DNA of 64,000 nucleotides from an uncultured Actinomycetota bacterium (GCA_963780675.1 CAWACR010000010.1:11814-75813), one strand, 5' to 3'; shown: positions 2,701-62,608, counted from the stretch's first letter. Notes: generated by a model from the sequence alone, not told the origin. Made by a program: numbers and translations.

Positions 2701-4936
<2,236 letters not shown>

Positions 4937-30937: not shown

Positions 30938-30958
30938 TAGTCTCGAACACATGTTCGC
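30938..30958 (+). promoter_or_regulatory. candidate leaderless promoter (-10 TAGTCT, 30938-30943) overlapped by a LexA/SOS box TCGAAC-ACAT-GTTCGC (30943-30958) that contains the recQ-like ATG
   Basis: The box matches the actinobacterial SOS-box consensus TCGAAC-N4-GTTCGA at 11 of 12 positions. The -10 lies 7 nt upstream of the ATG at 30951. Confidence 0.6.
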
Positions 30959-34543: not shown

Positions 34544-37500
34544 TCAGGACAGGAGGCAGCCCGAGCCGAGGAGGGCCTTGAGGTCGCCGAACAGCGCCGG
34601 GGAGGGCGTCACCCGGAAGCCGTCCTCCAGGCGGAGCACCTTGACGCGATCGGGGCTCGTGAGGCGCAGGCGCACCTCGGTCATCCCCGGGTGGTTCGTG
34701 AGGATGCTCTTCAGCCCCTCCACCACCGGTGCGGTGCACCGGTTCGTGGCGAGGGTGAGGGTGACGGGTGCGTCCTGGGTCGAGCTCAGGTCGGGCAGCG
34801 ACATCTCCGTGACCTGGAGCTGGATGCCGTCGTCACGCTTGCGGATCCGCCCACGGACGACGACGACGACGTCCTGGGCGAGCATCGTCGAGTACGCGAG
34901 GTAGGTCTCGCCGAAGAAGAGCACGTCCATCGAGCCGTCGAGGTCCTCGATGGTCGCGATCGCCCACGCGTTGCCCTGCTTCGACATCTTCCGCTGGAGC
35001 GAGGTCACCAACCCCGCGATCGCCACGGTCGAGCCGTCCGGCCGGGCGTCGTCGCCGAGCAGCGCCGCGATCGAGCAGTCCGCCGCCCGGCCGAGGACCT
35101 GCTCGAGGCCCTGGAGAGGGTGGTCGGAGACGTACAGCCCGAGCATCTGTCGCTCGAACGCCAGCAGCTCGCTCTTGTCCCACTCGGGGAGGTCCGGGAT
35201 CTCGAGGGCGAAGGAGGGCGCGGCGTCGGCCATGAGATCGGCCCCCAGGGAGGCGAACAGGTCGAACTGACCGAGCGCCTCGTTGCGCTTGAGGTCGACG
35301 ACCGAGTCCACCGCCTGCTCGTGGACCAGGACCAGCGCACGCCGGCTCCGGCCCAGGGTGTCGAACGCCCCCGCCTTGACCAACGACTCGATGGTCCGCT
35401 TGTTGCAGACGACCGCCGGGACCTTGTCGAGGAAGTCGGTGAAGGAGGTGAACGCACCCTTCTGCGTGCGCGCCGCGATGATCGCGTCCACGACGTTGGC
35501 GCCGACGTTCCGGATGGCCGTGAGCCCGAAGCGGATGTCCTCCCCCACGGCCGTGAACGTCCCTGCGGAGGCGTTGACGTCCGGCGGCAGCACGGTGATG
35601 CCCATGCGCCGGCACTCGGCCAGGTAGAGCGCGGACTTGTCCTTGTCGTCCCGCACCGAGGTGAGCAGGGCGGCCATGTACTCGGTGGGGTAGTTCGCCT
35701 TGAGGTAGGCCGTCCAGTAGGAGACGACGCCGTAGGCCGCCGAGTGCGCCTTGTTGAAGGCGTACCCGGCGAACGGGACCAGGGTGTCCCACACGGCCTT
35801 GATCGCGGCGTCGGAGTAGCCGCGCTCGCGCATGCCGGCCTCGAACGGCACGAACTCCTTGTCGAGGATCTCCTTCTTCTTCTTGCCCATCGCCCGGCGG
35901 AGCAGGTCCGCCTGGCCCAGGGAGTACCCCGCCAGCTTCTGCGCCGCGCGCTGGACCTGCTCCTGGTAGACGATCAGGCCGTGGGTGAGGCCCACGATCT
36001 CCTCGAGCGGCTCGGCCAGCTCGGGGTGGATCGGCTCCACCTTCTGCAGCCCGTTCTTGCGCAGCGCGTAGTTGGTGTGGGAGTTCATCCCCATCGGGCC
36101 GGGGCGGTAGAGCGCGATGACGGCGGAGATGTCCTCGAAGGTGTCCGGACGCATCTGGCGCAGGAGCGCCCGCATGGGCCCGCCGTCGAGCTGGAACACC
36201 CCCAGGGTGTCGCCGCGCCCGAGGAGCTCGTAGGTGGGCGCGTCGTCCAGCGGGAGGGTCTCGACGGCGATCGCCGGCTTGCCGTTGGCCACGATGTTGA
36301 CGAGGGCGTCGTCGAGGATCGTGAGGTTGCGCAGGCCGAGGAAGTCCATCTTGATGAGCCCGAGCGACTCGCACGTGGGCTGGTCGAACTGGGTGATGAT
36401 CGCGCCGTCCTGGGGGCGCTTCATGATCGGGATGATGTCGATCAGCGGCTCGCTCGACATGATGACTCCGGCCGCGTGCACGCCCCACTGCCGCTTGAGG
36501 TTCTCCAGCCCCCGGGCCGTCTCGAGGACCCGCTGCGCGTCCGGGTCGTCCGCGACCACCTGCCGGAACTCCTCGGCCTCGGCATAGCGGTCGTTCTTCT
36601 CGTCGTACATCCCCGTGAGCGAGATGTCCTTGCCCATGACGGCGGGCGGCATCGCCTTGGTGAGCTTCTCCCCCATGGCGAAGGGGAAACCCAGCACCCG
36701 CGAGGCGTCCTTGAGCGCCTGCTTCGCCTTGATCGTCCCGTAGGTCACGATCTGGGCCACCCGGTCGTCGCCGTACTTCTCCGTGACGTAACGGATGACC
36801 TCGCCGCGCCGGCGCTCGTCGAAGTCGACGTCGACGTCGGGCCACGACACGCGCTCGGGGTTGAGGAACCGCTCGAAGATCAGCCCGTGCTCGAGGGGGT
36901 CGAGCTCGGTGATGCCCATCGCGTAGGAGGCCATGGAGCCCGCGGCCGAGCCGCGGCCCGGCCCCACCCGGATGCCCTGGCTCTTCGCCCAGTTGATGAA
37001 GTCCGCGACGACGAGGAAGTACCCGGCGAAGCCGAGGGACGTGATGACCCCGGTCTCGTACACGGCCTGCTCGCGCACGGCGTCCGGCACCGCGCCCGCG
37101 TAGCGCCGCTGCAGCCCGGCGTCGACCTCCTTGACGAACCAGGAGTTCTCGTCCTCGCCCGGCGGCACCGGGAAGCGCGGCATGTAGTTCACGTCCGTGG
37201 TGAACTCCACGTCGCACTGCCCCGCGACCACGAGGGTGTTGTCGCAGGCGCCCGGGAACTCGGCGAAGGTGCGCCGCATGTCCTCGGAGGAGCGCAGGTA
37301 GTACGAGTTGCCGTCGAAGTGGAAACGGTCCGGGTCCGCCAGCGTCGAGCCCGACTGCACGGCCAGCAGCACCTCGTGCGCGTGGGAGTCGCCCTCGCGC
37401 GTGTAGTGCGAGTCGTTGGTGGCCAGGAACGGGGCGTCGATCGCCTTCGCGATCCGCACGAGGTCCCGTGTCACCCGCCGCTCGATCTCGATGCCGTGGT

Positions 37501-38089
37501 CCATCAGCTCGACGTAGAAGTAGTCCTTGCCGAAGATGTCCCGGAGCTCTCCGGCGGCCCGCACCGCCTCCTCGTACTGGCCGAGGCGCAGCCGGGTCTG
37601 CACCTCGCCGGAGGGGCATCCGGTGGTCCCGATGAGCCCGCCGCCGTAGGTGTTCAGCAGCTCGCGGTCCATCCGCGGCCACTTGCCCCACTGCCCCTCG
37701 AGCGAGGCGCGCGAGGCCATCCGGAAGAGGTTGTGCATCCCCGCCGTGGTCCGCGCCCACATCGTCAGGTGGGTGTAGGCCCCACCGCCCGAGAGGTCGT
37801 CCGCGCGCTGGCCGGCCTCACCCCAGTGCACCCGGGTGCGGTCGAAGCGGCTGGTTCCCGGCGTCACGTACGCCTCGATACCGATGACGGGCTTGACGCC
37901 GTGGGCGCGGGCCTTGGACCAGAAGTCGAACGCGCCGAAGAGGTAGCCGTGGTCGGAGATACCCAGGGCCGGTTGTTCCAGCCGCGTCACCTCGTCGAAC
38001 AGGTCGTCGAGCCGCGCAGCGCCGTCGAGCATGGAGTACTCGGTGTGAGCGTGGAGGTGAACGAAGCTCTTCACTCCGTCCGCGGCCAT
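34544..38089 (-). CDS. dnaE: DNA polymerase III alpha subunit (DnaE1)
   Basis: Intact 1181-aa ORF. The PHP domain starts FVHLHAHTEYSMLDGA. Also contains GRGSAAGSMASYAMGITELDP, KMDFLGLRNL and the OB-fold region. Confidence 0.97.
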   Translation of the reverse strand: MAADGVKSFVHLHAHTEYSMLDGAARLDDLFDEVTRLEQPALGISDHGYLFGAFDFWSKARAHGVKPVIGIEAYVTPGTSRFDRTRVHWGEAGQRADDLSGGGAYTHLTMWARTTAGMHNLFRMASRASLEGQWGKWPRMDRELLNTYGGGLIGTTGCPSGEVQTRLRLGQYEEAVRAAGELRDIFGKDYFYVELMDHGIEIERRVTRDLVRIAKAIDAPFLATNDSHYTREGDSHAHEVLLAVQSGSTLADPDRFHFDGNSYYLRSSEDMRRTFAEFPGACDNTLVVAGQCDVEFTTDVNYMPRFPVPPGEDENSWFVKEVDAGLQRRYAGAVPDAVREQAVYETGVITSLGFAGYFLVVADFINWAKSQGIRVGPGRGSAAGSMASYAMGITELDPLEHGLIFERFLNPERVSWPDVDVDFDERRRGEVIRYVTEKYGDDRVAQIVTYGTIKAKQALKDASRVLGFPFAMGEKLTKAMPPAVMGKDISLTGMYDEKNDRYAEAEEFRQVVADDPDAQRVLETARGLENLKRQWGVHAAGVIMSSEPLIDIIPIMKRPQDGAIITQFDQPTCESLGLIKMDFLGLRNLTILDDALVNIVANGKPAIAVETLPLDDAPTYELLGRGDTLGVFQLDGGPMRALLRQMRPDTFEDISAVIALYRPGPMGMNSHTNYALRKNGLQKVEPIHPELAEPLEEIVGLTHGLIVYQEQVQRAAQKLAGYSLGQADLLRRAMGKKKKEILDKEFVPFEAGMRERGYSDAAIKAVWDTLVPFAGYAFNKAHSAAYGVVSYWTAYLKANYPTEYMAALLTSVRDDKDKSALYLAECRRMGITVLPPDVNASAGTFTAVGEDIRFGLTAIRNVGANVVDAIIAARTQKGAFTSFTDFLDKVPAVVCNKRTIESLVKAGAFDTLGRSRRALVLVHEQAVDSVVDLKRNEALGQFDLFASLGADLMADAAPSFALEIPDLPEWDKSELLAFERQMLGLYVSDHPLQGLEQVLGRAADCSIAALLGDDARPDGSTVAIAGLVTSLQRKMSKQGNAWAIATIEDLDGSMDVLFFGETYLAYSTMLAQDVVVVVRGRIRKRDDGIQLQVTEMSLPDLSSTQDAPVTLTLATNRCTAPVVEGLKSILTNHPGMTEVRLRLTSPDRVKVLRLEDGFRVTPSPALFGDLKALLGSGCLLS

Positions 38090-57037: not shown

Positions 57038-58039
57038 TCACCAGGTCACCACCCGACGGCTCTGCGGGGTCTCCTTGATCCGCTCGGCGGCGCGGAGCCG
57101 CACCGACGCGGATCTCGGGTTGGCGGCCCGCTCCGCCTCGTCGGCCTCCTCGGCCCCGCGGACGAGGAGACGGAGGTAGGGCTCGTCCTCCTCGCGCACG
57201 ACCGGGATGCCGGGCGGCGTGCTCGCCGTCGCGCCGGCGGCGAGCGCCCGCTTGACGACGCGGTCCTCGAGGGAGTGGTAGGCCTCCACCACGATGCGCC
57301 CGCCGACGGCGAGGGCGTCGACGGCGCGGGGCACCGCGCGCTCGAGGACGTCGATCTCGGAGTTCACCGCGATGCGCAGTGCCTGGAAGGTCCGCTTCGC
57401 CGGGTTGCCGCCGGTGCGGCGGGCCGCGGCCGGGACACTGGCGCGGACGATCTCCACGAGCTCGGAGCTGCGGGTCACGGGCGCCTGCTCCCGCCTGCGC
57501 ACGATCGCGGCGGCGATGCGCCCCGCGAACTTCTCTTCGCCGTACTGCCACAGGATGGTCCGGATCTCCGCCTCATCGGCGTCGGCGAGGAGGTCCGCGG
57601 CCGTTCGGCCGCGTGAGGGGTCCATCCGCATGTCGAGCGGGGCGTCCTGGGAGTAGGCGAAGCCGCGGGACGGCTCGTCGAGCTGCAGCGAGGACACGCC
57701 GAGGTCGAAGAGCACGGCCTGCACCCGGGCGCCGGACCCCAGCGCGTCGTCGAGGACGTCGCGGATCTCGTCGTAGACGGCGTGCACCCCGGTGAACCGC
57801 CGGCCGAAGGGCGCGAGCCTGTCCGAGGCGAGCGCGAGGGCCTGCGGGTCCCGGTCGATCCCGATCACCCGCGCGTGCGGGCACGCGGCGAGCACCAGCT
57901 CGGAGTGCCCGCCCATGCCGAGGGTGGCGTCGACCATCACGCACCCCGGAGCGGTGAGCGCCGGCTCGAGGAGCTCGAGGCAGCGCGCAGCCAGCACCGG
58001 CCGGTGCAGCTCTGCGGCGTCGACGGAGCGCACACGCAT
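57038..58039 (-). CDS. rsmH: 16S rRNA (cytosine1402-N4)-methyltransferase
   Basis: Contains [46 protein letters not shown] and [11 protein letters not shown]-like ([14 protein letters not shown]). Confidence 0.95.
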
Positions 58040-58051
58040 CTCCTCTCATGG

Positions 58052-58082
58052 CTGGTCAGGTGGCCTGCGCCCGCCTGACCAG
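58052..58082 (-). promoter_or_regulatory. hairpin in the mraZ-rsmH spacer, immediately upstream of the rsmH SD; possible counterpart of the actinobacterial mraW RNA motif
   Basis: 9-bp perfect stem ctggtcagg/cctgaccag with a 13-nt loop. On the mRNA it is followed by ccaugagaggag-AUG. I could not do a covariance-model comparison. Confidence 0.3.
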
Positions 58083-58190
58083 GACTCCCTCCGCCTGCTC
58101 TGGCGCCGGGGAAGTGCGTCAGAGTCGCGGTGAGAGACCTCGTCCTGCGGGCGGAAGGGGTCGTCGGGGTGGCGGCCGGGAGGACCCGGC

Positions 58191-58622
58191 TCAGAAGAGG
58201 CCGGGGATCACCTCCTCGGCCGTCTCGGCGAAGGCCGGCTCGGCATCTGTCAGGTAGGCGTCCCACGCGGCGGCGTCCCAGATCTCCACGCGGGCTCCGG
58301 AGCCGGTGACGGTGAGTTCGCGATCGAGGCCGGCGTAGGTGCGCAGGACCGGGGGGATGGTGATCCTTCCCTGCTTGTCGGGTACCTCGTCGACCGCGCC
58401 GGAGAGCAGGACTCGCTGGTAGTCACGCGCCTGCTTGCTGGTCACGGGGGCCTGGCGCAGCGCCTCGTAGATGCGCTCGAACTCGCGCATCGGGAAGGCG
58501 TAGAGGCAACGTTCCTGGCCTTTCGTCAGGACGAGCCCGGCGCTGAGCTCCTCGCGGAACTTCGCCGGGAGGATCAGCCGCCCCTTCTCGTCGAGGCGAG
58601 GCGAGTAGGTCCCGAGAAACAC
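58191..58622 (-). CDS. mraZ: division/cell-wall cluster transcriptional regulator MraZ
   Basis: (V)[25 protein letters not shown]... and [18 protein letters not shown], the two SpoVT-AbrB repeats. The GTG at 58622 is preceded by GGAGGAGG. Confidence 0.92.
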
Positions 58623-58639
58623 GACCCACCTCCTCCCCG

Positions 58640-58684
58640 CCCCACCAAGTGCCCCCACATTACTCCACTTCGCTCCACCGTCAA
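58640..58684 (-). promoter_or_regulatory. mraZ/dcw promoter (-35 TTGACG 58684-58679, 16-nt spacer, -10 TAATGT 58662-57) overlapped by direct-repeat MraZ boxes
   Basis: The minus strand reads TTGACG-GTGGAG-CGAA-GTGGAG-TAAT-GTGGGG-GCACTTG-GTGGGG. Three boxes have exact 10-bp phasing (58678, 58668, 58658) and a fourth is at 58645. This matches the known MraZ autoregulatory architecture. Confidence 0.65.
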
Positions 58685-58905
58685 TGCCGCAACACGGGGA
58701 ATCGCACCCCTTGCGGAACGTCTGCGCAGTTCAGCGGCGTGGTGGGAAGTGGAGACCGATGCCGCCCCCACCCGGCCGGACGCGGGCGCCGACGCCGCTC
58801 GGACGGGTCGGGAGGGCGCGCCGCGCCGTCAACCGGCCCGTCAGGCGCGGGATCCGGCACCGAAGGGCGTCCCCGGGCACGACCAGACCCGTGTTCGGCG
58901 AGGTG

Positions 58906-58974
58906 GTGGAGGGATGTGGGGGTGTGGAGCGATGTGGGGGGTGGGGCGTGTGGAGCGATGTGGGGGGCGTGGAG
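58906..58974 (+). repeat. array of GTGGAG-NNAT-GTGGGG 16-mers on the opposite strand to the mraZ operator
   Basis: GTGGAGGGATGTGGGG (58906-21), GTGGAGCGATGTGGGG (58924-39) and GTGGAGCGATGTGGGG (58950-65), plus extra GTGGGG/GTGGAG at 58941, 58969 and 58985. The same 16-mer (GTGGAGTAATGTGGGG) occurs in the promoter-proximal operator. Confidence 0.85.
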
Positions 58975-59036
58975 AGACGGGGCCGTGGGGACACGGGGCC
59001 CACGGGGATCAGGCCGCCCCGGGCCGGGGCGCGCCG

Positions 59037-59077
59037 CCGGGCGGGTGGAGGAGCACCCGGCCGGGCGGGTGGAGGAG
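59037..59077 (+). repeat. 17-bp direct repeat CCGGGCGGGTGGAGGAG x2 with 24-bp period
   Basis: Copies lie at 59037-59053 and 59061-59077, in the non-coding spacer between the DUF3040 gene and mraZ. Confidence 0.9.
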
Positions 59078-59198
59078 TGGGCCGACGCACGCACCGGGGA
59101 GCGGTCAGACGAACGCGCGGCCGATCACCGCGAGAAACTCGAGACGGTGAACGGCCGCGCGCGGCGGGTGGGTCGAAAGAGAGGGGGGAACCGGCGAC

Positions 59199-59573
59199 CT
59201 ACCGCGCGTCGCGGCGGCGGTCCCAGCGCTCCTCGAGCCGCTGCATGAACGTGGGGCGGGCGCCCCGCGCCGAGCGGGCGGCGGTGGGCGGCCCGTGGGG
59301 GGCGGTGCCGTCGGCGCGACGTCGGGGCTTGGACACCGCGATCCAGACGCCACCGAACATCGCGAGGAAGCCGACGATGCCCAGCCAGTAGAACTGGAGG
59401 GCGACACCTCCGACGAGCATGCCCATACCGACGATGAGCACGACGACGCCGAGAAGAACGCGCGAGCCGCTCGATCGGCGGGAGCCGAGAGCGTCCGCGA
59501 GCTTCGGGTCGTCAGATCGAAGCTGGCGCTCCATCTGTTCGAGCATGCGCTGCTCGTACTCGGAGAGAGGCAT
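59199..59573 (-). CDS. DUF3040-family membrane protein
   Basis: MPLSEYEQRMLEQMERQLRSDDPKLADAL, followed by two TM helices. It holds the conserved position upstream of mraZ in actinobacteria. Confidence 0.8.
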   Translation of the reverse strand: MPLSEYEQRMLEQMERQLRSDDPKLADALGSRRSSGSRVLLGVVVLIVGMGMLVGGVALQFYWLGIVGFLAMFGGVWIAVSKPRRRADGTAPHGPPTAARSARGARPTFMQRLEERWDRRRDAR

Positions 59574-59623
59574 CCAAGCCTCCTTGGTCAGACGTGGGAC
59601 TCGCTCCCGGGTGGAACGTAGTC

Positions 59624-60874
59624 TCAGGATAGGTCGCTTGCAGCCGGTGCGGTAGCCGGGCGCCGAACGAGCGATCCGGGGCGCACCGAACCGACGCCGT
59701 AGCGAGCCCGCACGCGGTCGACCGCGAGCTCCGCGGTGCGGTGGTCGGGCCCCCCGAGCTCATCGAAGGAGGTCTGGACCGCGGCCCCCGACGCGTCGAC
59801 CAGCCCTTCCGCCCGGACCCCGATGAGCCGGACGCCGTCGGACGGGATCTCGACCGCGGCAAGGAGCCGACGAACCCCGTTGTAGAGGTCGTGCGCCGTG
59901 TCAGTGGGGGCGTCCAGGGTCAGGCTGCGCGAGAAGGTCGAGAAGTCGGCCCCCCGAACCTTGAGCGTCACCGTGCGGCCGAGAAAGCCCCCGGCGCGCA
60001 TCCGTGCCGCCACCCGGTCCGACTGCTCCAGGAGGACCGGCAGGAGAGCGGCCGGCTGCGTGACGTCGACCGGGAAGGTGGTCTCGGTGCCCACGCTCCG
60101 CTCCTGCCGGGACGGCTCGACGGGTCGCGGGTCCCGACCCCACGCGAGGTCGTGGAGCCGTCGGCCCGCGGCGCGTCCCACCATCCGCTCGAGGACCTCG
60201 ACCGGGATGCCCGCGAGCTCACCGACCGTCCGGATGCCACGCCGCACGAGCTGGTCCTCCGTCCGCTCCCCCACCCCCCAGAGCGCCCCCACGGGGAGGG
60301 AGTGCAAGAAGTCGACCGTGGCGGCGCGGGGCACGAGCAGGAGCCCGTCCGGCTTGGCGTGACCGGAGGCGAGCTTCGCGACGAGCTTGCTGCTCGCGGC
60401 CCCGACCGACGCCGGCACACCGAGCTCCGCCCGGATGCGGTCACGGATGTCCTGGCCGATCCGGACGGGACTGCCGAGCCTGCGACGAGCGCCCGAGACG
60501 TCGAGGAACGCCTCGTCGATGCTCACCTGTTCGATGACCGGCGTCACCGAGCCGAGCAGGGCCATCACCGACAGCGACACCGCGCGGTATGCGGCATGAC
60601 GGGGCGGGAGGACGACCGCGCCCGGGCACAGCGCTCGCGCACGCGCCATCGGCATGGCAGCGTGCACGCCCACCGCGCGCGCCTCGTAGGTCGCCGAGAG
60701 CACGACGCCGCGGCGGTCGGCCCCGACGATCACGGGGCGGCCCCGCAGGTCGGGCCGCTCGAGCAGCTCGACCTCGGCGAAGAACGCATCCATGTCGACA
60801 TGCAGGATGCCGCACCCCGAGTCGTCGCCGCCCCAGTCCCGCCGCGCCTGCGCGCTGCGCGGACCCCGGCTCAC
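59624..60874 (-). CDS. dinB: DNA polymerase IV (Y-family translesion polymerase)
   Basis: Contains ILHVDMDAFFAEVELLERPDLRGRPVIVG, SIDEAFLDVSG, ASVGAASSKLVAKLASGHAKPDG and LPVGALWGVGERT. The GTG at 60874 overlaps the stop of the upstream HEPN-like ORF (GTGA). Confidence 0.9.
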   Translation of the reverse strand: MSRGPRSAQARRDWGGDDSGCGILHVDMDAFFAEVELLERPDLRGRPVIVGADRRGVVLSATYEARAVGVHAAMPMARARALCPGAVVLPPRHAAYRAVSLSVMALLGSVTPVIEQVSIDEAFLDVSGARRRLGSPVRIGQDIRDRIRAELGVPASVGAASSKLVAKLASGHAKPDGLLLVPRAATVDFLHSLPVGALWGVGERTEDQLVRRGIRTVGELAGIPVEVLERMVGRAAGRRLHDLAWGRDPRPVEPSRQERSVGTETTFPVDVTQPAALLPVLLEQSDRVAARMRAGGFLGRTVTLKVRGADFSTFSRSLTLDAPTDTAHDLYNGVRRLLAAVEIPSDGVRLIGVRAEGLVDASGAAVQTSFDELGGPDHRTAELAVDRVRARYGVGSVRPGSLVRRPATAPAASDLS

Positions 60875-61356
60875 GAGGCGCGCGCCAGGCTCGGGTCCTG
60901 GACGGCGCCGAGAAACATCCGGGCCATGCTCAGGACGTGGTCCGCCTGCTCCTGGGGCACCGTGGCCCGCCGGCCCGACTCGATCGCGGCCCGGAGGTCG
61001 GAACCGGCCGCGAAGTAGGCGGCCCACGCGCGGAGGTCGGGCGCCGCTCGGGTGAGGAGCTCCCAGACCGTGGGCGTCCGGCCTCGCGTCGCCGGACGGC
61101 CCCGGACCGCGAGCACGGCCGCGGCCGTCCGGAGGGCACACAGGTGGGCGCGGACGAACCGCTCGGACGGGTCACCGGTACGCTCCGCGGCCGCCAGCTC
61201 GCGGCCGGCCCTGGCCAGGAGGTCCTGGGCCGCGGGCGAGCACCACAACGCCTCGAAGCCGGGCTGCCAGTCGGCGGCCCGCCGCCGGACCTCGTGCGCC
61301 GACGCGCTCGAAGCGCCGATCGACCCGGTCATCGCCCCTCTGCCCGCCCGATCCAT
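60871..61356 (-). CDS. HEPN-like helical protein (resembles the actinobacterial SAV_6107-type family) with an Rx4H motif
   Basis: 161-aa ORF with an SD (GGAGGTG) before the ATG at 61356. It contains ERFVRAH (R-x4-H) within predicted helices. The family assignment is from memory, not a search. Confidence 0.55.
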   Translation of the reverse strand: MDRAGRGAMTGSIGASSASAHEVRRRAADWQPGFEALWCSPAAQDLLARAGRELAAAERTGDPSERFVRAHLCALRTAAAVLAVRGRPATRGRTPTVWELLTRAAPDLRAWAAYFAAGSDLRAAIESGRRATVPQEQADHVLSMARMFLGAVQDPSLARAS

Positions 61357-61377
61357 CCGACCTCACCTCCGAGACCC

Positions 61378-61407
61378 AGTATCGAACGGCTGTTCGATAG
61401 ATGTCAA
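61378..61407 (-). promoter_or_regulatory. SOS-regulated promoter: -35 TTGACA (61407-02), 18-nt spacer, -10 GATACT (61383-78), with LexA box TATCGAAC-GGCT-GTTCGATA (61380-61399) filling the spacer and overlapping the -10
   Basis: A perfect 8+8 inverted repeat contains the full actinobacterial SOS-box core TCGAAC-N4-GTTCGA. It lies 24-43 nt upstream of the HEPN-like ATG. Confidence 0.7.
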
Positions 61408-61420
61408 GGGATGTCCTGGC

Positions 61421-61426
61421 TAGGGT
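61421..61426 (+). promoter_or_regulatory. candidate -10 hexamer TAGGGT for a leaderless transcript of the methyltransferase-like gene
   Basis: A TANNNT hexamer lies 6 nt upstream of the GTG at 61433. The SOS box lies 22 nt upstream of the hexamer. Confidence 0.35.
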
Positions 61427-61432
61427 GCGTCC

Positions 61433-62293
61433 GTGACGCTCCGAGACCTACCGTCGGGGCCGGTGTCGATCGACACGGGCACGGTCGAGCTGGTGCGGGT
61501 AGCCGGCGACCCGACCGGCGTGACCGTCTACGTCAACGGGGCGGAGAGCTCGCACATCGACCTGGCGGATCCCACCCGGCTCGAGTTCGAGTACATGCAG
61601 CAGATGCTGGCCGTCGTCGACCACGCACTCCCCGGCGACACTCCCCTGCGGGCCGTCCACCTGGGCGCGGCGGCCTGCTCGCTCGCCCGGGCGATCGAGG
61701 CGAGACGACCCGGTTCCCGGCAGATCGCCGTCGACGTCGACGCGACGCTCGCCGCTCTCGTCCGGCTCTGGTTCGACCTGCCCCGGGCGCCTCGCCTGCG
61801 GATCCGCATCGCGGACGCGCGCCGGGCGATGGAGACCGTCCCACCCGGCTCCCAGGACGTCGTGGTCCGCGACGTGTTCACCGGGCGGACCGTCCCGGGC
61901 CACGTCCGGACGGCCGAGTTCGCCACGCTCGTCGCCGGCGTCCTGCGCCCCGGGGGAGTCTTCCTCGTCAACTGCATCGACATCCCGCCGCTGCTCGACA
62001 CGCGCCGCGAGGTGGCAACCGTCGCCACGGCCTTCCCGCACGTCGCCGTCGTCGTCGAACCGGCCATCCTCAAGGGGCGCCGTTACGGGAACGTCGTGCT
62101 CGCGGCGTCGTCCGACCCCCTGCCGGCCGACACGCTCGCACGCGCCCTGCGCGCGCTCCCCTTGCCGGTCACGCTGCTCGTCGGCGACGACGCCCTGCGC
62201 TTCGCAGGCACGGCCCGACCCTTCACTGATCCGACCGATCCAACCGAGGCGCCGACCGGCGAACGGGGCGGGCCGGCGGCGCTGAGCCGCTGA
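61433..62293 (+). CDS. spermidine-synthase-like class I SAM-dependent methyltransferase-fold protein
   Basis: 286 aa. Contains EFEYMQQMLAVV, AVHLGAAACSLARAI, IAVDVDATL, VVVRDVF and LRPGGVFLVN. Confidence 0.65.
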   Translation: MTLRDLPSGPVSIDTGTVELVRVAGDPTGVTVYVNGAESSHIDLADPTRLEFEYMQQMLAVVDHALPGDTPLRAVHLGAAACSLARAIEARRPGSRQIAVDVDATLAALVRLWFDLPRAPRLRIRIADARRAMETVPPGSQDVVVRDVFTGRTVPGHVRTAEFATLVAGVLRPGGVFLVNCIDIPPLLDTRREVATVATAFPHVAVVVEPAILKGRRYGNVVLAASSDPLPADTLARALRALPLPVTLLVGDDALRFAGTARPFTDPTDPTEAPTGERGGPAALSR

Positions 62294-62326
62294 GCCGCTG
62301 AGCCGCTGAGCCGCTGAGCCGCTGAG
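62279..62326. repeat. 8-bp tandem repeat (C/G)CGCTGAG x6
   Basis: gcgctgag, then five perfect ccgctgag units. The stop codon of the preceding CDS (TGA 62291-62293) lies inside unit 2. Confidence 0.97.
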
Positions 62327-62345
62327 CGATCCTGCCCACACGCGA

Positions 62346-62382
62346 CGAGAGGCCCGCACCCGGTCAGGGTGCGGGCCTCTCG
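62346..62382. terminator. bidirectional intrinsic-terminator-like hairpin between convergent genes (16-bp perfect stem, 5-nt loop)
   Basis: cgagaggcccgcaccc-ggtca-gggtgcgggcctctcg, located between the methyltransferase-like stop (62293) and the cspA stop (62405). There is no clear U tract. Confidence 0.6.
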
Positions 62383-62404
62383 CGAGGTGAGGAGGGTGTG
62401 GTCC

Positions 62405-62608
62405 TCAGGCGACGCGGACGTTCTCCGCCTGCGGGCCCTTCGGGCCCTGCGTGATCTCGAACTCGACCCGCTGGGCCTCTTCGAGGGAGCGGTAGCCGTC
62501 CGACTGAATGGCCGAGTAGTGGACGAAGACGTCGGCGCCGCCGCCGTCCTGGGCGATGAAGCCGTAGCCCTTCTCAGCGTTGAACCACTTGACGGTTCCC
62601 TGTGCCAT
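62405..62608 (-). CDS. cspA: cold-shock protein (CspA family)
   Basis: [67 protein letters not shown], with RNP1 and RNP2 motifs. Confidence 0.96.

Follow-up and report, generated by a model that had tools for sequence, protein, structure and literature searches.

A LexA-box-headed operon pairing a HEPN_SAV_6107 protein with DinB in an uncultured actinobacterium: a possible accessory factor of an ImuA-less translesion machinery

Genes for Y-family polymerases under LexA control are commonly preceded by a small accessory gene, as in umuD-umuC, yqjX/yolD-yqjW/uvrX and imuA-imuB, and the accessory proteins of operons of the umuDC, yolD and imuA type are regulators, not polymerases (PMC6511836). 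Here we analyse a locus of this general layout in a stretch of 64,000 nucleotides from an uncultured Actinomycetota bacterium (GCA_963780675.1, CAWACR010000010.1:11814-75813), called the window below, where a LexA (SOS) box heads a gene for a 161-residue protein of the HEPN superfamily, followed at once by dinB. The reading that we favour, and to which sequence comparison and locus analysis lead us to give a probability of about 0.55, is that these genes form an SOS operon in which the HEPN protein would be an accessory or regulatory factor of an ImuA-less translesion machinery (PolY/DinB, DnaE2B, ImuB-C and RecA), and not a toxin.

With the umuDC, yqjX/yolD-yqjW/uvrX and imuA-imuB-dnaE2 operons the locus shares an SOS box, a small gene, and a Y-family polymerase gene tightly coupled to it or overlapping it. 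What sets them apart is the fold of the accessory protein, an S24 peptidase with a beta core in UmuD, SH3-like in YolD and RecA-like in ImuA, whereas the protein of the window is an all-alpha HEPN bundle. Modules of the types DnaE2B-PolY-[ImuB-C]-RecA and DnaE2B-[ImuB-C] have been described in Actinobacteria (PMC12926913, 2026), ImuB-C itself having been defined in another study (PMC3765255). The family DUF6504 corresponds to ImuB-C, as its sequence agrees with those of the ImuB-C proteins that the supplement of PMC12926913 gives. Loci related to the window resemble the DnaE2B-PolY-ImuB-C-RecA cassette in having the same polymerases and small subunit, in lacking imuA and imuB, and in carrying a LexA box at their head. 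They differ from it by the addition of a gene of the Pfam family PF18726, which stands either between ImuB-C and DnaE2 or immediately ahead of PolY. The window differs further, as it holds the HEPN gene and PolY only; neither a DUF6504/ImuB-C gene nor a dnaE2 gene was found within its 64 kb.

Another point of comparison is the Escherichia coli dinB-yafN-yafO-yafP operon, in which SOS-induced Pol IV is co-transcribed with the YafN-YafO toxin-antitoxin pair. Both there and here dinB lies under LexA together with a gene whose superfamily is known above all for toxins that target RNA. In the window, unlike in E. coli, the small gene comes first and its stop codon overlaps the polymerase start, no antitoxin is present, and the protein has no canonical HEPN motif. 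The range of the linkage also differs, the window type being phylum-wide and the E. coli arrangement confined to a few enterobacteria.

The operon is made up as follows.

61407 to 59624, minus strand: the compact unit as a whole, from the -35 hexamer through the end of dinB
61402 to 61407, minus strand: -35 hexamer TTGACA, part of the sole promoter-like site in 59000-62500
61380 to 61399: LexA (SOS) box, a 20-nt palindrome TATCGAAC-GGCT-GTTCGATA, with its core at 61382-61397
61378 to 61383, minus strand: -10 hexamer GATACT, sharing four bases with the end of the palindrome (right arm of the box)
61366 to 61370, minus strand: Shine-Dalgarno sequence GGAGG, read directly in the sequence, with a gap of 9 nt to the HEPN start codon
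60871 to 61356, minus strand: gene for the 161-residue HEPN_SAV_6107 family protein, ATG at 61356, TGA at 60873-60871
59624 to 60874, minus strand: dinB, a Y-family DNA polymerase IV of 416 residues, its GTG at 60874-60872 overlapping the upstream TGA (GTGA)

A reading made earlier from the sequence alone had reported a perfect SOS box within the spacer of a near-consensus promoter, and all the elements that it described are present. The sigma-70-like promoter TTGACA-18 nt-GATACT agrees with the consensus at 10 of 12 positions; a promoter scan covering 3.5 kb found no second site, and shuffles of the same interval predict 0.0. On the minus strand the palindrome reads TATCGAAC-AGCC-GTTCGATA and starts two bases after the -35 hexamer, filling the spacer and running into the -10. 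The perfect core TCGAAC-N4-GTTCGA occurs only once in the 64 kb, while dinucleotide shuffles lead one to expect 0.01 (it was seen in one of 100). A box that is perfect, that lies across the promoter and that is conserved in orthologous loci qualifies the operon, as far as sequence can tell, as a member of the LexA regulon, and the agreement with the known actinobacterial consensus suggests that LexA would bind there.

Elsewhere in the window, a second SOS-box-like site, TCGAACACATGTTCGC, with one mismatch, lies at 30943-30958 on the plus strand, on the likely ATG (30952) of an open reading frame (ORF) for a RecQ-family helicase (30858/30952 to 33128, plus strand), with TAGTCT preceding the site. 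This recQ-like gene, which diverges from a hisC-like gene, seems to be leaderless and under LexA control.

To place the operon among its relatives, 80 genome loci, 80 metagenome loci and ten contigs encoding chosen homologues were compared by tblastn and box scans; the closest named relatives among them belong to Xylanimonas, Isoptericola and Puerhibacterium. The architectures are listed here, MTase standing for a methyltransferase gene.

HEPN-DinB-DUF3040 (window type): seen in 43 non-redundant loci, among them Xylanimonas, Puerhibacterium and Isoptericola; every locus has the box, either perfect or one base off (TAGAAC variant)
HEPN-MTase-DinB-DUF3040: seen in 15 loci, Jatrophihabitans among them; box in 13, degenerate in L083, and L143 cut by the contig end
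DUF6504-HEPN-DnaE2: L112/L114, L115/L116, L141 and L153/L156; box 5' of the DUF6504 gene, perfect except in L115/L116 (one mismatch); the loci are truncated, hence the presence of an MTase is not assessable
DUF6504-HEPN-DnaE2-(MTase)-PolY: L168 (a metagenome-assembled genome), L169 (Angustibacter sp. Root456) and L170 (Kineosporia rhizophila); perfect box 5' of the DUF6504 gene, with DnaE2 and PolY separated by an MTase gene in L168 and L169
HEPN-MTase-DUF3040: every one of the 76 genome loci from Streptomyces, Kitasatospora and Actinacidiphila, and Mangrovactinospora (L086); no canonical box and no polymerase

Presence and absence of the LexA box follow those of the polymerase genes. The box is found with at most one mismatch in 56 of the 58 non-redundant loci that carry a downstream PolY, one of the exceptions being cut at a contig end, and no canonical GAAC-N4-GTTC box occurs in the 74 Streptomycetales genome loci that could be assessed and have no polymerase. 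(Three Streptomyces near-matches, TCGAAC-N4-GATCGA, with one mismatch, were discounted because their GTTC core is broken.) Across 78 related loci, in which the HEPN protein shares no more than about 40-55% identity with that of the window, the 12 specified bases of the box are invariant or one base off, while the flanks cannot be aligned; since these 12 bases are kept where their surroundings vary, the box is a selected, conserved footprint and not a product of chance. Its setting takes two forms. In the clade of the window type, TTGAC(A/G) stands 3-5 nt (usually 4) before the box, and the -10 overlaps the right arm (its equivalents in related loci being GATACT, GACACT, GATCAT and GATGAT); the other types have their -10, TAnnnT, just 5' of the box. 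Both geometries would fit repression by occlusion of the promoter.

Individual loci vary on this theme. Between the HEPN gene and dnaE2, L112 has a second perfect LexA box at 2278-2293 (1078-1093 in L114), and dnaE2 may have its own SOS promoter there. The degenerate box of the HEPN-MTase-DinB locus L083 (4960-5000), TCGAAC-GAAA-TCGAAC, is a direct instead of an inverted repeat. In L085 an additional GTTCGAAC lies beside the ribosome-binding site.

The junction between the two genes of the window is as tight as the sequence-only reading had it, the HEPN stop and the dinB GTG sharing bases. This GTG is the sole in-frame start after the HEPN stop that retains the catalytic Asp of HVDMDAFFAEVE, and tblastn alignments of DinB to its homologues start at residue 1. 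As the GTG overlaps the stop and no Shine-Dalgarno sequence is visible in the 20 nt before it, coupling of translation by termination and reinitiation would fit well. Among the 43 HEPN-DinB junctions, 19 have a stop/start overlap of 4 or 1 nt and 17 a gap of at most 30 nt; in L168 and L169 the HEPN stop overlaps by 4 nt the start of DnaE2 (PHP). One HEPN family is in this way tied to two unrelated classes of polymerase, DinB/PolY and DnaE2. The box, the adjacency of HEPN and DinB, and the tight or overlapping junctions are kept in many Actinobacteria outside Streptomyces.

DinB itself has the domains IMS (PF00817, E=5.7e-48) and IMS_C (PF11799, E=1.4e-28), together with HHH, and scores 390.6 bits against the NCBIfam model NF003015 (PRK03858, DNA polymerase IV; cutoff 367). 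Its catalytic motifs are intact (HVDMDAFFAEVE, with D26-M-D28, and SIDEAFLD), the steric gate being F31. Domains, acidic residues and model score agree in designating it, by sequence, as a Pol IV. A match of its C-terminus (about residues 384-402) to DUF4113/RecA-NT stays below threshold (12.4 bits, E=0.16, cutoff 24). The protein shares 59-66% identity with the PolY proteins of the full cassettes L168-L170 and 53-59% with the DinBs of other HEPN-DinB loci, which by sequence makes it orthologous to the cassette PolY. Because of this 59-66% identity, we read the module of the window as a reduced form of an ImuB-C-HEPN-DnaE2-MTase-PolY cassette, the counterpart of the DnaE2B-PolY-ImuB-C-RecA system of PMC12926913. 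In a rough neighbour-joining tree the HEPN proteins of the window type fall in one clade and those of the other architectures are intermingled, the pattern to be expected of a single orthologous family that has undergone repeated gene loss.

The assignment of the 161-residue protein to HEPN, made at first from the sequence alone, withstood profile and structure searches. The protein matches PF18726 (HEPN_SAV_6107), a family of about 1,222 clusters at 50% identity, over the whole profile (1-98 of 98) with E=1.2e-30 and 106.4 bits (cutoff 27.2). No other Pfam family and no NCBIfam model matched it; NCBI labels its relatives 'SAV_6107 family HEPN domain-containing protein'. AlphaFold, given an alignment of 20 sequences, yields a model with a mean confidence score (pLDDT) of 84 and a core above 95, in which a disordered segment (residues 1-40) is predicted to precede a bundle (41-153) whose helices span 41-59, 63-85, 97-126 and 135-153. 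The top four PDB matches in Foldseek, 2hsb, 1wol, 3o10 and 1ufb, are all HEPN domains (probability 1.00, with weak E values of 0.05-0.2), and the family profile finds 2hsb (AF0298) by sequence as well (E=0.024), in a colinear alignment. The structural matches and the colinear profile match together support a HEPN fold, modelled as a four-helix up-down bundle with an insert between helices 2 and 3.

The fate of the catalytic motif is another matter. In HEPN domains the hallmark Rx4-6H lies where helix 3 ends, and a second conserved motif lies on helix 2 beside it (PMC3710099). The protein of the window does contain the R-x4-H motif that the sequence-only reading had taken for the hallmark, ERFVRAH, yet this corresponds to E65-H71 in helix 2, where H71 aligns to a Tyr of AF0298. 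At the canonical place, according to the profile alignment to AF0298, one finds 'LRAAIESG', where R122 matches the Arg of the motif and is followed by no His (positions 122-128 are R122-AAIE-S127-G128). No His occupies the canonical site in any of 402 family members, in which positions 127-129 are A/S, G and I/R/L. The catalytic type of Rx4-6H is absent, then, as judged by alignment, and the identification of ERFVRAH with the hallmark has to be given up. R66-x4-H71 is nevertheless clearly, from its conservation, a strongly conserved motif of the family and part of a conserved functional patch: among the 402 members R66 is kept in 94%, H71 in 97%, R76 in 100%, R122 in 100% and E126 in 92%, and W98, W111 and G128 are conserved within the same range of 92-100%. 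From the topology of the modelled bundle we infer that R66/H71 and R122/E126 would lie at the same end of adjacent helices.

In the census of HEPN domains of 2013, the row 'HEPN-M (SAV_6107)' gives 'No' for the motif, '-' for the context and Actinobacteria for the range (PMC3710099). That entry and the AF0298-like HEPN-T/UPF0332 proteins (2hsb) have the same fold as the protein of the window, and all keep the Arg of Rx4-6H, have lost the His and carry a conserved His elsewhere; the alternative His of AF0298-like proteins is in the insert between helices 2 and 3, while that of the window protein (H71) is in helix 2. The second difference from the census is one of context, as a strong association with SOS control and polymerases appears here where none was listed.

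A short x-A-[G/S] tail (RAG, RAS, DAG, AAG, LAS) closes many members of the family: Ala occupies position -2 in 46% of the 402 proteins, and position -1 is Gly or Ser in 60%. Such a tail could be a docking or a degradation signal. At the C-terminus of the window protein (60874-60888), the last Ser codon, TCG, together with TGA yields the overlapping dinB GTG.

Conservation of a polar patch in a HEPN fold brings to mind an RNase. The HEPN protein might be an SOS-induced effector, a toxin-like brake on growth whose rewired site of His71 and Arg122 would cleave mRNA, tRNA or RNA at stalled forks, with DinB doing no more than sharing the operon, as in the YafN-YafO case. The fold and family membership, the strong conservation of the five polar residues and the E. 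coli precedent all speak for this. So do the position of the patch on helix 2, which bears the second HEPN motif beside the catalytic one, and the alternative His sites proposed for the AF0298-like proteins, AF0298 being the closest solved relative (PMC3710099). The uniform lack of the canonical His, matched by a census that lists the motif as not conserved, points the other way, and the closeness of H71 to R122 derives from topology only. The surroundings of the gene are also hard to reconcile with a toxin. No MNT nucleotidyltransferase or antitoxin partner was found in the window or in any architecture of the related loci; PADLOC matched neither the HEPN protein nor DinB; and the gene keeps a fixed chromosomal position next to the cell-division (dcw) cluster, with a tree congruent with vertical descent, unlike the mobile genes of toxin and defence systems. 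For these reasons the toxin or defence framing of the sequence-only reading is weakened, and we do not retain it. Moreover, the Streptomyces copies have no LexA box, and a toxin made without regulation, with no antitoxin in evidence, would be an awkward case. On balance we regard the RNase effector as unlikely.

The other genes of interest in the window are these.

61433 to 62293, plus strand: spermidine-synthase-like gene, 286 residues, class I methyltransferase fold (NCBIfam NF037959, 91.9 bits, cutoff 40)
59199 to 59573, minus strand: DUF3040/SCO2097-family membrane protein (Pfam DUF3040 and NCBIfam SCO2097_fam)
58191 to 58658, minus strand: mraZ, after the DUF3040 gene
57038 to 58039, minus strand: rsmH, after mraZ
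35555 to 38074, minus strand: homologue of the alpha subunit of Pol III (DnaE), 29% identical to the DnaE2 of L115, and probably, from its sequence, the replicative DnaE1

Across the box from the operon, the GTG of the spermidine-synthase-like gene (61433) is 33 nt from the end of the palindrome; the distance of 34 nt given before was off by one, while the closeness itself stands. TAGGGT at 61421-61426, 6 nt ahead of this GTG, points to a transcript without leader, for which the -35 region would adjoin the LexA box, and the divergent gene is possibly co-repressed through the shared region. The sharing of the box region by a divergent methyltransferase-fold gene, already remarked upon in the sequence-only reading, recurs in 32 of the 34 HEPN-DinB loci that could be assessed, and the other architectures never show it. 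The protein also has a weak PADLOC match to 'mad2' (E=2.8e-9), probably a generic match to the methyltransferase fold.

A methyltransferase fold so regularly at hand raises the thought that the HEPN protein partners it, for example as a substrate-binding or regulatory subunit, in the modification of nucleic acids or small molecules, the polymerases being secondary additions in SOS-regulated lineages. A class I S-adenosylmethionine (SAM) methyltransferase gene directly follows the HEPN gene in all Streptomycetales loci and in all HEPN-MTase-DinB loci, and is present in two of three full cassettes; the window-type clade, which lacks it in the operon, has the different, spermidine-synthase-like gene divergent across the box in most loci; and nucleotidyltransferases are known to have HEPN domains as their partners or for substrate binding (PMC3710099). 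The two methyltransferase-fold proteins are not orthologous, though: BLASTP aligns them over 41 residues only (E=0.003), a generic class I match, on which ground we also rejected the divergent gene as an inverted copy of the one in the operon. In the full cassettes DnaE2 separates the methyltransferase gene from the HEPN gene, and the gene overlapped by the HEPN stop is always that of DinB or DnaE2, never that of the methyltransferase. A partnership of this kind seems to us quite improbable.

On its other side the SOS unit lies immediately upstream of the dcw cluster (57038-59573, minus strand). The DUF3040 gene, which is probably outside the unit, follows DinB or the methyltransferase gene in nearly all loci, the box-less Streptomyces loci included, and in several related loci a TgpA-like transglutaminase gene and a DUF58 gene come after DUF3040 instead. 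DUF3040/SCO2097 is an actinobacterial signature gene of the MreB complex (PMC4255298). One may then ask whether the whole linkage reflects nothing more than synteny passed on by descent, with no function in common, the HEPN gene being another dcw-adjacent 'signature' gene, like DUF3040, that happens to stand between a LexA promoter and dinB. The order HEPN, MTase, DinB, DUF3040, then a transglutaminase-like gene or mraZ, is indeed kept across orders of Actinobacteria, the Streptomyces gene does without polymerase or box, and DUF3040/SCO2097 is a known signature gene with a role in the cell wall. Mere synteny would leave unaccounted for a second polymerase context, in which the HEPN gene lies 5' of DnaE2 and 3' of ImuB-C with the box ahead of the whole unit, and the recurrence across lineages of stop/start overlaps with whichever polymerase comes next. 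LexA boxes also persist before HEPN genes that have no adjacent DinB (L164/L165 and L117/L120). We consider this explanation distinctly unlikely.

These last loci bear on our own reading too, as they have box and HEPN gene followed by genes other than polymerases, and they join several observations that weigh against an accessory factor of translesion synthesis. The Streptomycetales keep HEPN-MTase-DUF3040 with neither polymerase nor LexA box, which implies a role for the HEPN protein that needs neither an adjacent polymerase nor SOS control, and a methyltransferase-fold gene is a steadier neighbour of the HEPN gene than the polymerases are. In the cassettes of Tessaracoccus lapidicaptus and Arthrobacter alpinus (PMC12926913) the modelled proteins have consecutive accession numbers, which suggests that no HEPN gene lies there between ImuB-C and DnaE2, and that the HEPN protein is not obligatory. 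It is possible, from their conservation, that R66, H71, R76, R122 and E126 form a rewired RNase site. Finally, the loci were sampled outward from the HEPN protein.

As to the exceptional loci themselves, L164/L165 have a perfect box and a HEPN gene (3501-3842 in L165), then an ORF of the mycothiol-type MDMPI (maleylpyruvate-isomerase)/DinB_2 superfamily ending at 4633, and in L117/L120 genes for two secreted proteins without Pfam matches are inserted between the HEPN and methyltransferase genes.

If the HEPN protein does serve the translesion machinery, the operon might work in the following way. LexA on 61380-61399 would occlude the spacer and the -10 of the TTGACA-18-GATACT promoter and, probably, the -35 region of the divergent leaderless promoter. 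DNA damage would bring about RecA-stimulated cleavage of LexA and allow synthesis of an mRNA with a short leader, encoding first the HEPN protein and then DinB. Translation of DinB would depend on ribosomes terminating on the HEPN gene, tying the amounts of the two products together, and the HEPN protein would bind the polymerase, or its nucleic-acid substrate, via the polar patch R66, H71, R76, R122 and E126, which would occupy the place of the HEPN active-site cleft. We infer the steps that follow LexA repression from the linkage of the genes and from the precedent of umuDC, yolD-uvrX and imuA-imuB. A more specific version, which we put forward tentatively, at appreciably less than even odds and on sequence grounds, makes HEPN_SAV_6107 a subunit or regulator of the mutasome, kept by translational coupling in fixed ratio with DinB or DnaE2B, that would license, target or restrain error-prone synthesis, perhaps by means of a rewired His71/Arg122 site acting on RNA at stalled forks or on primer-template junctions. 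No fusion of HEPN with ImuB-C or with a polymerase was seen in ten unusually long members of the family, which carry PF18726 alone.

Much of what is assembled here is already known: the LexA box, Pol IV, PF18726, and SOS polymerase operons with small accessory genes. The link of HEPN_SAV_6107 to polymerase cassettes headed by a LexA box appears to be new. The word 'HEPN' is absent from the main text and from six supplementary files of PMC12926913, the 2026 polymerase survey, and HEPN is not mentioned in the ImuB-C/SRAP paper or in the 2019 survey of Y-family polymerases; beyond the one table row of PMC3710099, nothing on such a link was found in the literature searched, a coverage outside which most subscription journals fall. 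The view that an SOS-induced HEPN protein coupled to a translesion polymerase has no described function held within that literature.

The evolution of drug resistance in Actinobacteria, relatives of mycobacteria included, is driven by the mutagenesis that DnaE2 and Y-family polymerases carry out after DNA damage, and how the polymerases are controlled in the numerous species without ImuA and ImuB is a question raised by the surveys of bacterial polymerases of 2019 and 2026. A HEPN gene headed by an SOS box, often overlapping the start of a polymerase gene, in well over a hundred loci is a candidate for the missing regulator. Were this borne out, PF18726, listed without context since 2013, would receive its first biological context, and the HEPN fold would have been recruited to DNA-damage tolerance instead of to conflict systems. 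If the protein is indeed a subunit or regulator of the mutasome, a new class of fold would join UmuD, YolD, ImuA and ImuB-C among the accessory factors of translesion synthesis.

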